From IMG/VR virus record IMGVR_UViG_3300031759_000002: DNA of 64,000 nucleotides; one strand, written 5' to 3'. This DNA comes from a virus. Lineage: Duplodnaviria > Heunggongvirae > Uroviricota > Caudoviricetes. Of this stretch, positions 58,393-59,505 are shown piece after piece. Position 1 is the first letter of the stretch. Each line of letters begins with the position of its first letter. The notes beneath the pieces were generated by a model. It worked only from the letters and a program-made list of their open reading frames with translations, searched no databases and had not been told where the DNA came from. Made by a program: the position numbers and the translations under genes.

Positions 58393-59505
58393 ATGGATAA
58401 AGGAATTGTAAATAAAATTAACGACTCTCCTTACAAGGCATTTGTTGCTATATCAGGTGGAGGACAATCATTTATTGCGGATTACTGTAAAATTAGCGGA
58501 GCATCCAAAACTATAGTTGGATGTATTGTTCCGTATGATAGAACTATATTTGATAATTTTATAGGAACTAAAATAGATGAATATTCCAGTCCATTAGCCG
58601 CTCGTAAATTAGCATTGGCATCATATCAGCAGTGTCGTATTGCCGGTATTGATATCGATAAATCTATTGGTATTGGTGCCGCCAGTTCTATTGCTTTTGA
58701 CGGAGAACGAGTTGGACGACTACATAAAGTTAATATTGCCATACATATCAGTTATTTTACGGTATGTCTTAAAATTACAATTCCGTATGGTGTAATGACA
58801 AGAGTAGAAGAAGATTTATACATATCCGATAGAATATTGTATTTGTTAAATAAAGTTGTTGACTCTATGAGTGGAGATGATTATATTTGGGAATATAATT
58901 ATGTGGATGATAAGGGCATGACTGGAGAATTAAAGATAGCACATGCTGGTAAATTATATTCATTAGTTAAAGGAGAGATTGGTTATTATTCCAATATATC
59001 AATATCCAACATTGAAAGAATTGCTGTTTTTGGAGGAAGTTTTAATCCTTATCACGAAGGGCATCGTAAAATTAAGGAATTATCTGAAAAAATATTAAAT
59101 TATCCAGTATTACTTGAATTATCTATTAAAAACGCAGATAAAGGAACGATAGATTTAATTGACATAAAAAATAGATTGGACTCTATTGCTGATAATACAT
59201 ATATTATTACTAATGCTTCTTTGGTTATAGATAAAATAAATATAATTAAAAAACACAATCCTAAATGTGAAATAACATTTGTAATGGGTGCCGATACGTT
59301 TATTAGAGTGTTTGATGATAAATATGGCATTCCAGTTGATGATTTAGAATACTTTTTTACTCGTAAAAATGTTAAGTTTTTAGTATTTGGTCGTAATGGG
59401 ATTAAAATTGATGATAGATACAGTCATTTAATGATTAAATCAGATGAAGCGGCTAATTTTAATATGCCGATATCATCGACTGAATTGAGGAATAAGAATG
59501 TTTAA
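58393..59505 (+). CDS. bifunctional NAD-metabolism protein: N-terminal CinA_C/PncC-like (NMN deamidase-like) domain fused to a C-terminal NadD/NMNAT-type nucleotidyltransferase
   Basis: N-terminal AISGGGQSFIADY...ISGAS...GCIVPYD...IGIGAASSIAFDG resembles the CinA_C pattern (ESCTGG...PGAS...GGVVAY...TGIAGP). C-terminal VFGGSFNPYHEGH (HxGH) and ISSTELRNK (ISSTxxR) are NMNAT motifs. Confidence 0.55.
   Translation: MDKGIVNKINDSPYKAFVAISGGGQSFIADYCKISGASKTIVGCIVPYDRTIFDNFIGTKIDEYSSPLAARKLALASYQQCRIAGIDIDKSIGIGAASSIAFDGERVGRLHKVNIAIHISYFTVCLKITIPYGVMTRVEEDLYISDRILYLLNKVVDSMSGDDYIWEYNYVDDKGMTGELKIAHAGKLYSLVKGEIGYYSNISISNIERIAVFGGSFNPYHEGHRKIKELSEKILNYPVLLELSIKNADKGTIDLIDIKNRLDSIADNTYIITNASLVIDKINIIKKHNPKCEITFVMGADTFIRVFDDKYGIPVDDLEYFFTRKNVKFLVFGRNGIKIDDRYSHLMIKSDEAANFNMPISSTELRNKNV

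Follow-up and report, generated by a model that had tools for sequence, protein, structure and literature searches.

A predicted NAD+ salvage adenylyltransferase of a jumbo-type phage combines a CinA-like domain with a NadD-like domain

The locus and the encoded protein

The stretch of DNA analyzed here (64,000 nucleotides, hereinafter the window) comes from the Caudoviricetes virus record IMGVR_UViG_3300031759_000002 of IMG/VR and encodes, at 58393..59505 on the + strand, a protein in which a domain of the CinA/PncC fold is followed by a nucleotidyltransferase domain similar to NadD and other pyridine-mononucleotide adenylyltransferases (NMNAT, nicotinamide mononucleotide adenylyltransferase). 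The open reading frame (ORF) starts with ATG, consists of 370 codons plus a stop codon and is complete. Only 4 nucleotides separate it from the stop codon of a small upstream gene and it overlaps the downstream gene by 8 nucleotides, so that it belongs to a tightly packed block of + strand genes, which begins at about 56.3 kb and continues until the window ends. An initial annotation of this DNA, made from the letters alone, had proposed a two-domain protein at exactly these coordinates, and both domains are supported by the sequence and structure searches described below. The relevant features are as follows (positions are those of the window).

58393..59505, + strand: fusion ORF, CinA-like domain and NadD/NMNAT-like nucleotidyltransferase (Pfam, AlphaFold model, Foldseek)
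58393..58872, + strand: N-terminal domain of the CinA/PncC fold, amino acids 1-160 (Foldseek, profile search against the PDB, PF02464 matches of homologs)
58453..58464, + strand: S21-G-G-G loop, counterpart of the PncC block ESCTGG; S21 aligns with the catalytic S31 (alignments)
58549..58551, + strand: codon of F53, at the position of the PncC base K63 (AtCinA) or K301 (TtCinA) (four alignments)
58873..59004, + strand: inter-domain segment, amino acids 161-204, a small beta-rich connector in the model (model secondary structure)
59005..59502, + strand: C-terminal nucleotidyltransferase domain of the HIGH superfamily, NadD/NMNAT type, amino acids 205-370 (PF01467, NCBIfam NadD models, Foldseek)
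59047..59064, + strand: PYHEGH, the (H/T)xGH ATP-binding signature, amino acids 219-224 (motif in sequence)
59470..59490, + strand: ISSTELR, the ISSTxxR signature, amino acids 360-366 (motif in sequence)

The AlphaFold model of the fusion protein, built from 64 homologs, has a pLDDT of 94.6 and a pTM of 0.91, and Foldseek searches with this model match its separate halves to structures of the CinA superfamily and of NadD. The inter-domain segment (amino acids 161-204) is variable and gapped in the alignment of the homologs. Judging by its sequence, the protein probably represents a new architecture among the NAD-salvage adenylyltransferases of phages and is a member of a large family for which no characterization could be found.

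The C-terminal adenylyltransferase domain

The C-terminal region (amino acids 205-370) matches the Pfam profile PF01467, CTP_transf_like, with 36.4 bits (cut-off 21, E 7e-9), and this generic profile is the only curated threshold that the fusion protein passes. The best NCBIfam matches of the same region are all NadD models, all of them far under the equivalog cut-offs (44 bits vs the cut-off of 315 for NF005519, and 35.4 vs 112 for TIGR00482), and their E-values are about 8 orders of magnitude better than those of the CoaD models. The Foldseek results agree in kind: the top match is the NadD structure 3e27 (E 3.2e-7, target TM 0.64), followed by 8aih and 5deo, with target TM about 0.6, and NadD structures outrank phosphopantetheine adenylyltransferase (PPAT) by about 5 orders. 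The signature GxFxPxHxGH is present as GGSFNPYHEGH, ending at amino acid 224. The motifs read in the initial annotation as HxGH (NPYHEGH) and ISSTxxR are indeed found, at amino acids 219-224 and 360-366. Nine residues, namely H221, H224, K250, G299, D301, R305, S361, S362 and R366, are invariant in the 64 homologs.

The closest structural relatives of this domain are thus bacterial NadD enzymes, e.g., those of B. anthracis (3E27) and M. abscessus (5DEO), with which it shares (H/T)xGH and ISSTxxR; in addition, an NxDK...R segment of the fusion protein can be aligned by eye with the mononucleotide-binding segment PPHK...R of NadD. The differences are the low identity (17-23%), the scores far under the equivalog cut-offs and the extra N-terminal domain. 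Bacterial NadD enzymes prefer nicotinic acid mononucleotide (NaMN) as the substrate. The fusion protein contains no Nudix domain detectable with Pfam and, given that it ends with the ISSTELR helix at amino acid 370, no C-terminal nicotinamide-riboside kinase (P-loop) domain of the NadR type.

The N-terminal CinA-like domain

Searches of Pfam, PHROGs and PDB sequences started directly with the N-terminal half identify nothing significant, and the fusion protein itself does not match PF02464, CinA, even at E<=1 (the gathering threshold is 23.5 bits). Because the direct searches were unproductive, the homology of this domain was established transitively and by structure. Full-length homologs match PF02464, some of them above the gathering threshold (26.3 bits for P0031, 23.9 for P0058 and 105 for P0080); in a search of the PDB with a profile of the N-terminal domain, the top four matches are all CinA proteins (2a9s with E 0.014, 4ct8 and 4uux with 0.27); and Foldseek retrieves structures of the CinA superfamily with the probability of 1.00 and target TM about 0.6 (6mr3 with E 2.6e-6; 4ct8, 5vu3 and 2a9s with about 1e-4 to 5e-4). 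The likeness to CinA_C/PncC that had been noted from the sequence is therefore borne out.

The assignment of a function to this domain depends on individual residues. In the deamidases of nicotinamide mononucleotide (NMN), the catalytic residues S31 and K63 and the phosphate binders Y58 and R145 are all required, with alanine mutants of all four being inactive, and the characteristic blocks are ESCTGG, GxS, YxNxxK and TGxAGP (PMC5384747, PMC3855486). In each of the two mechanisms proposed for PncC, this lysine serves as the general base, and the K63A mutant is inactive (PMC5384747). Four independent alignments, namely MAFFT with the canonical homolog P0080, HMMER against AtCinA (2a9s), HMMER against TtCinA (4ct8) and hhalign against P0080, yield a concordant mapping in which S21 corresponds to S31, G36 and S38 to G46 and S48, Y48 to Y58, and F53 to K63/K301; the hhalign comparison of the N-domain profile with the single P0080 sequence is weak (probability 8%, E 0.004) and its alignment is concordant with the others. 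R137 of the fusion protein is the equivalent of R145. Thus, compared with PncC/CinA_C proteins (PF02464; AtCinA 2A9S, TtCinA 4CT8 and E. coli YgaD), the domain retains the fold and the equivalents of G46, S48, Y58 and R145 (G36, S38, Y48 and R137), but differs in that K63 is replaced by Phe, ESCTGG by (T/S/A)GGG, the Thr of TGxAGP is lost and the Pfam match is missing.

The same pattern holds across the family. The lysine column of the 64 homologs contains V (22 sequences), F (18), L (11), T (5), I (5), Q (2) and a single K, found in P0080, the canonical outlier from Planctomycetota. Of 227 sequences taken for a wider census from the exhaustive search described below, 218 are aligned at this column, which in them contains L (94), F (55), V (36), I (11), M (11), T (9) and Q (2), and Lys in 0 of 218. 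The catalytic Ser column in the wider census contains T (164), S (18), A (33) and V (3), i.e., T/S in 84% and Ala/Val in 36 of 218 (about 16%). S21 is present in the fusion protein, with the remainder of the ESCTGG block reading GGG rather than CTG, and the equivalent of T105 is Ala. The equivalents of the phosphate binders are kept, with G46 in 216, S48 in 213, Y58 in 209 and R145 in 218 of the 218 sequences. There are also near-invariant residues specific to the family, H111 (209/218), T123 (205/218), E140 (208/218) and R71 (192/219), along with the (T/S)GGG loop.

We read these patterns as an apparently preserved site for the mononucleotide phosphate from which the canonical amidohydrolase machinery has gone. 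Given that the catalytic Lys is absent whereas the phosphate-binding residues are nearly invariant, the domain is probably a mononucleotide-binding or re-purposed module and not an NMN deamidase. A canonical deamidase was accordingly rejected, and the deamidase-type activity put forward in the initial annotation is unlikely in view of F53 at the K63 position, the absence of Lys from all 218 relatives and Ala/Val in about 16% of the Ser column. The loss of the deamidase machinery is reminiscent of the naturally inactive CinA paralogs of E. coli, YdeJ and YfaY (described in PMC3855486). The Planctomycetota branch represented by P0080 (e.g., MCP4817177.1) contains the same fusion with a canonical CinA domain, including ESCT and YxNxxK with the Lys (105 bits with PF02464).

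Distribution of the family and gene neighborhoods of the homologs

A word-indexed search retrieves 81 homologs, nearly all of 360-430 amino acids and of the same architecture, some of which carry the automatic JGI label 'nicotinic acid mononucleotide adenylyltransferase / NMN deamidase PncC'. An exhaustive search with the N-domain profile over representatives of clusters at 50% identity yields 3,311 matches at E<=1e-3, 2,483 at E<=1e-10 and 703 at E<=1e-30; the best 150 of these are mostly fusion-sized. Among the species representatives of GTDB, the full-length protein is chromosomal in many phyla, with 21-30% identity, the carriers being Gammaproteobacteria (Azotimanducaceae, Woeseia, OM182), Dehalococcoidia and other Chloroflexota, Planctomycetota, Chitinophagaceae, Alphaproteobacteria, Latescibacterota and others. 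IMG/VR contains 31 full-length viral loci, and a full-length protein in BFVD, encoded by an uncultured Caudovirales phage, bears no other name than 'Cytidyltransferase-like domain containing protein'. Of the 50,697 phage records deposited, one (LR745208.1, where it is unannotated) contains a homolog, with no NAMPT within 10 kb of it.

Literature searches for a described fusion of PncC/CinA with NadD/NMNAT found none, so that the earlier remark that this fusion appeared undescribed stands as far as publications are concerned; it does not stand for the databases, in which the family is large and spans many phyla and some members already bear JGI labels that name both activities. The possibility that the fusion is unique to this phage was considered and rejected, the family being widespread on bacterial chromosomes and in viruses. 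Two of the 31 IMG/VR loci are contigs of giant-virus metagenome-assembled genomes (GVMAG; L108 and L114), which carry the fusion with NAMPT beside it and may be real or a binning artefact; a 2022 survey reported no NAD+ salvage in eukaryotic viruses (PMC9503650).

In four of four phage-like contigs with homologs of 37-47% identity, the gene order is (NADAR)-fusion-NUDIX-NAMPT, and one of these also encodes phosphoribosyl pyrophosphate (PRPP) synthetase. By tblastn, 19 of the 31 IMG/VR loci have NAMPT within 10 kb of the fusion gene, and no bacterial locus does. Pfam searches of the five nearest ORFs, two upstream and three downstream, at 30 viral and 31 bacterial loci recover NAPRTase (18), NAMPT_N (17), NUDIX (15), NADAR (4) and cREC_REC (3) at the viral loci, without NAD synthetase (NadE) among the recurrent families, and no recurrent NAD-related partner at the bacterial loci. 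The lack of NadE among the recurrent viral neighbors favors direct conversion of NMN to NAD+. The best explanation of this context appears to be that the viral members occupy the NMNAT place in a salvage cluster of the NARP2 or NadV/NatV type, which consists of NAMPT and NMNAT, with Nudix, NADAR and PRPP synthetase as additional components.

The phage genome and its NAD+ consumers

The identical protein is encoded on at least 16 metagenome contigs of about 353.8 kb. Such contigs from different samples (e.g., Ga0316229_1000015 and Ga0316223_1000010) are circular permutations of one gene order; the differing start points indicate a circular or circularly permuted complete genome, and the window is therefore part of a genome of about 354 kb, with 30% GC and of the jumbo-phage type. 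This genome encodes a family-B DNA polymerase, dUTPases, DHFR, ThyA, homing endonucleases, IS200/IS605 elements and a suppressor-type tRNA. The local gene order, ProQ_C-like, DUF6557, R2K ATP-grasp, elongation factor Ts (EF-Ts), fusion, ..., DHFR, ThyA, LigA, is shared with the closest relative, in which the fusion protein is 77% identical; the fusion gene thus sits in a block of replication and nucleotide-metabolism genes (EF-Ts, DHFR, ThyA, LigA).

Three consumers of NAD+ are encoded in the genome (coordinates preceded by an L number refer to loci analyzed in addition to the window):

44867..46141, - strand: PARP, with PARP_reg and PARP catalytic domains, NAD+ consumer (catalytic domain E 7.5e-21)
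L145 8250-8996, + strand, about 1 kb upstream of window position 1: SIR2-family protein of 248 amino acids, PF02146, NAD+ consumer (Pfam)
L147 6626-8572, + strand, about 8.4 kb downstream of the fusion gene: NAD-dependent DNA ligase LigA, 648 amino acids, complete (adenylation, OB and BRCT domains)

The PARP had already been recognized in the initial annotation, and the Pfam matches to both PARP_reg and the catalytic domain agree with it; the protein is 70% identical to the PARP on the contig of the closest relative (L143), where there is also a weak Pfam match to WGR. A partial copy of LigA lies past the 3' end of the window (L001 20177-21112). The by-product of the ligase, NMN, is the physiological substrate of PncC (PMC3855486).

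Genes for the salvage partners (NAMPT, Nudix, NADAR and PRPP synthetase) were sought in the window by tblastn with the proteins of the relatives, and none was found. The sole match from these queries (33989-34405) is to a cREC_REC domain and not to the NADAR domain; it falls on the following gene:

34025-34423, - strand: stand-alone cREC_REC protein (cyclic-phosphate processing receiver; Pfam domain)

At two of the related loci (L087 and L088), cREC_REC is fused to NADAR just upstream of the fusion gene, with one small ORF in between. When the NAMPT of a relative was compared with 5.8 billion proteins, 7,196 matches were obtained, none of them on the contig of this phage among the 120 matches listed.

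Predicted function

The predicted reaction is NMN + ATP -> NAD+ + PPi (pyrophosphate), with NMN the more likely substrate than NaMN because NAMPT is syntenic, the base of the deamidase is missing and no NadE is associated. From the architecture, folds, motifs, distribution and synteny observed, we infer NMN as the substrate, a non-catalytic role of the N-terminal domain and the physiological purpose outlined below. Altogether, we favor, with reasonable if incomplete confidence, a pyridine-mononucleotide adenylyltransferase that probably converts NMN to NAD+ and contains a mononucleotide-binding, non-deamidating N-terminal domain. Under this scheme, the C-terminal domain would adenylylate a pyridine mononucleotide, NMN being the likelier one, and the N-terminal domain would bind a phosphoribosyl mononucleotide via G36, S38, Y48 and R137, for capture, hand-over, regulation or dimerization. 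The enzyme could regenerate NAD+ from NMN released by the phage's own ligase; nicotinamide from PARP and SIR2 could be reused if a phage- or host-encoded NAMPT supplies NMN. In this manner, the enzyme would help to keep NAD+ available during infection.

Several observations weigh against this assignment. The inspected portion of the genome, i.e., the window and its flanks (10 kb past each edge), about 90 kb of 354 kb, contains no NAMPT, Nudix or PRPP synthetase, and the locus of the closest relative also lacks these three genes, so that the salvage-pathway context comes from distant relatives at 37-47% identity. The connection to NadV/NatV-type salvage drawn in the initial annotation hence fits the viral homologs, among whose neighbors NAMPT and Nudix are dominant, but the search for these two partners came up empty in the inspected part of this genome. 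The best profile and structure matches of the C-terminal domain are to NadD enzymes, with NCBIfam scores far under the equivalog level, and bacterial NadD prefers NaMN, so that the preferred substrate may be NMN or NaMN. The bacterial homologs have no NAD-related neighbors, and the ancestral role of the family may therefore differ. Finally, the conservation of H111, T123, E140, R71 and T/S21 may point to an enzyme with altered chemistry rather than to a passive binder.

Alternative explanations

The last observation is the basis of the strongest competing explanation, which we consider unlikely, namely that the N-terminal domain is an active enzyme with a new chemistry, such as a Thr/Ser21-His111 hydrolase acting on an NAD-derived metabolite and coupled to the adenylyltransferase; candidate substrates would be an ADP-ribose derivative, the glycosidic bond of NaMN or NMN, or a defence signal. 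Phosphate binding alone does not explain the near-invariant H111, T123, E140 and R71 and the TGGG loop, the two domains seem to be rigidly placed relative to each other, given the pTM of 0.91, and the NADAR and Nudix neighbors point to ADP-ribose chemistry nearby. However, no structural or biochemical precedent was found in the literature searched, and the nucleophile position is not conserved, with Ala/Val in 16% of the sequences. Slightly less probable still is a true bifunctional PncC-NadD enzyme, in which the N-terminal domain would convert NMN to NaMN and the C-terminal domain NaMN to nicotinic acid adenine dinucleotide (NaAD), with the host NadE completing NAD+. The retained PncC fold and phosphate-site residues, the presence of S21 at the catalytic Ser position, the proximity of the C-terminal domain to the NaMN-preferring NadD and the fact that the phage ligase yields NMN, the physiological PncC substrate (PMC3855486), are all compatible with such an enzyme. 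In Planctomycetota, the canonical CinA domain of P0080, complete with the Lys, is joined to the same transferase, which makes an ancestral bifunctional enzyme plausible, and this branch may represent such an ancestral, truly bifunctional PncC-adenylyltransferase. What weighs against deamidation in the phage protein is the Phe at the position of the general base K63, with Lys in 0 of 218 relatives and the K63A enzyme dead (PMC5384747), together with Ala at the T105 equivalent and Ala/Val at the Ser position in 36 of 218 sequences. Furthermore, deamidating NMN made by the adjacent NAMPT would be an ATP- and NadE-dependent detour, and NadE is not among the recurrent viral neighbors.

Two further explanations are highly improbable. 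The C-terminal domain might act on a substrate other than a NAD precursor, by analogy with PPAT, FMN adenylyltransferase (FMNAT) or glycerol-phosphate cytidylyltransferase, given that only the generic PF01467 is passed and the scores fall far short of the NadD equivalog cut-offs; an ISSxxxR-type motif also occurs in PPAT. Yet NadD outranks both CoaD (about 8 orders, NCBIfam) and PPAT (about 5 orders, Foldseek), the fusion partner is of a pyridine-mononucleotide-binding fold, and NAMPT and Nudix dominate the viral neighborhoods. The other explanation, marginally the least probable of all, is that a bacterial housekeeping gene is carried by large phages as a passenger that contributes nothing specific to infection or to the evasion of defences. 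This would account for the occurrence of the family on many bacterial chromosomes in unrelated contexts and for the location of the fusion gene of this phage away from NAMPT or Nudix. It is difficult to reconcile with the viral copies forming their own diverse set, with their strongly non-random association with NAMPT, Nudix and NADAR, which is absent in bacteria, and with the conservation of the gene and the local synteny in the 77%-identical relative, all functional motifs being intact.

Relationship to known NAD+ salvage and reconstitution systems

The pathway closest to the predicted one is NARP2, which consists of Nampt and Nmnat and corresponds to the NadV/NatV salvage set of Vibrio phage KVP40; its ability to counteract NAD-depleting defences has been demonstrated (bioRxiv 10.1101/2024.02.11.579819, which cites Lee et al. 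2017). The viral homologs of the fusion likewise adjoin NAMPT and Nudix, and often NADAR and PRPP synthetase, and the fusion family has a HIGH-type adenylyltransferase with HxGH and ISSTxxR. These shared neighbors and motifs imply the same gene set and the same predicted chemistry, nicotinamide to NMN to NAD+, as in KVP40. In contrast to NatV/NadM of KVP40, which is an NMNAT with a C-terminal Nudix domain, the protein described here is NadD-like with an N-terminal CinA-like domain, and the relatives encode Nudix separately; furthermore, unlike in KVP40, no NAMPT was found in the inspected part of this phage genome. With respect to bacterial NadD, it is the viral NAMPT context that argues for NMN rather than NaMN.

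The CinA protein of Thermus thermophilus, in which a COG1058 ADP-ribose pyrophosphatase is combined with PncC (PMC4246079), is similar in that a CinA/PncC domain is fused to a second NAD-recycling activity. There, the partner is an N-terminal MocF/COG1058 pyrophosphatase, whereas here it is a C-terminal adenylyltransferase, and the PncC domain of TtCinA is catalytically competent (K301), unlike the N-terminal domain of the fusion with F53. Phage-encoded rebuilding of NAD+ is also the hallmark shared with NARP3, i.e., PnuC and NadR (PMC13464706), and NARP1, i.e., Adps and Namat. The former differs in using import of nicotinamide riboside and the NadR kinase/adenylyltransferase, and the latter in its ADPR-PP chemistry. 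None of NARP1, NARP3 and the published phage NadM-Nudix and NadR proteins contains a CinA-like domain. In a survey of sequenced phages, NadM and NadR were the only adenylyltransferases (PMC9503650).

Other features of the phage genome

Several additional features were identified in the window and its flanks:

57474-58142, + strand: EF-Ts homolog, PF00889 (E 4.5e-26), two genes upstream of the fusion gene
56316-57158, + strand: R2K-type ATP-grasp protein, PF18299/PF14243, in the same + strand block as the fusion gene
about 48.4-50.9 kb: IS200/IS605-type element (Y1 transposase and TnpB/Cas12f-like TNB; TnpB at 49772-50911, + strand), inside the phage genome
L001 18937-19884, - strand: second IS200/IS605-type element; the genome thus has at least two TnpB copies
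L145 4321-4827 and 5757-6323, + strand: two dUTPase genes close together, plus a 'GT4-conflict' glycosyltransferase, upstream of the window
28041-28115, - strand: tRNA with the anticodon CTA, amber-suppressor type, the only tRNA in the window (ARAGORN label tRNA-Pyl)

The EF-Ts gene occupies the same position in the 77%-identical relative; translation factors are unusual among phage genes. The tRNA with the CTA anticodon raised the possibility of TAG recoding, of which there is no clear sign in the window: TAG terminates 6 of 74 ORFs, and reading through TAG does not give strikingly longer ORFs.

Biological significance

Rebuilding of NAD+ by NARP1, NARP2 and NARP3 is a recently recognized counter to NAD-depleting bacterial immunity, and an anti-defence role of the fusion may be envisaged by analogy with NARP2. 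That a single genome encodes PARP, SIR2 and NAD-dependent ligase together with a predicted NAD-forming enzyme suggests that the NAD+ supply is deliberately managed. The family is nearly absent from isolate phages but common in metagenomic large phages at the NMNAT position beside NAMPT, and may therefore account for some seemingly incomplete salvage clusters; with the giant-virus MAG contigs, the known range of NAD salvage would also become wider. The N-terminal domain appears to illustrate how a deamidase fold can be put to another use once the catalytic base is lost.

It is possible, as a more specific and distinctly more tentative proposal, that these proteins represent a third, undescribed class of viral NMN adenylyltransferases besides NadM-Nudix and NadR, in which the pseudo-deamidase CinA domain serves as an NMN-capture or allosteric module, i.e., a variant of NARP2 in jumbo phages and giant-virus-like genomes. 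If this is the case, the CinA module might sequester NMN from the host PncC and pass it to the fused transferase. The fusion then offers a candidate function for a large uncharacterized bacterial family, and if the proposal is correct, a function would be assigned to more than 2,000 clusters of bacterial proteins.

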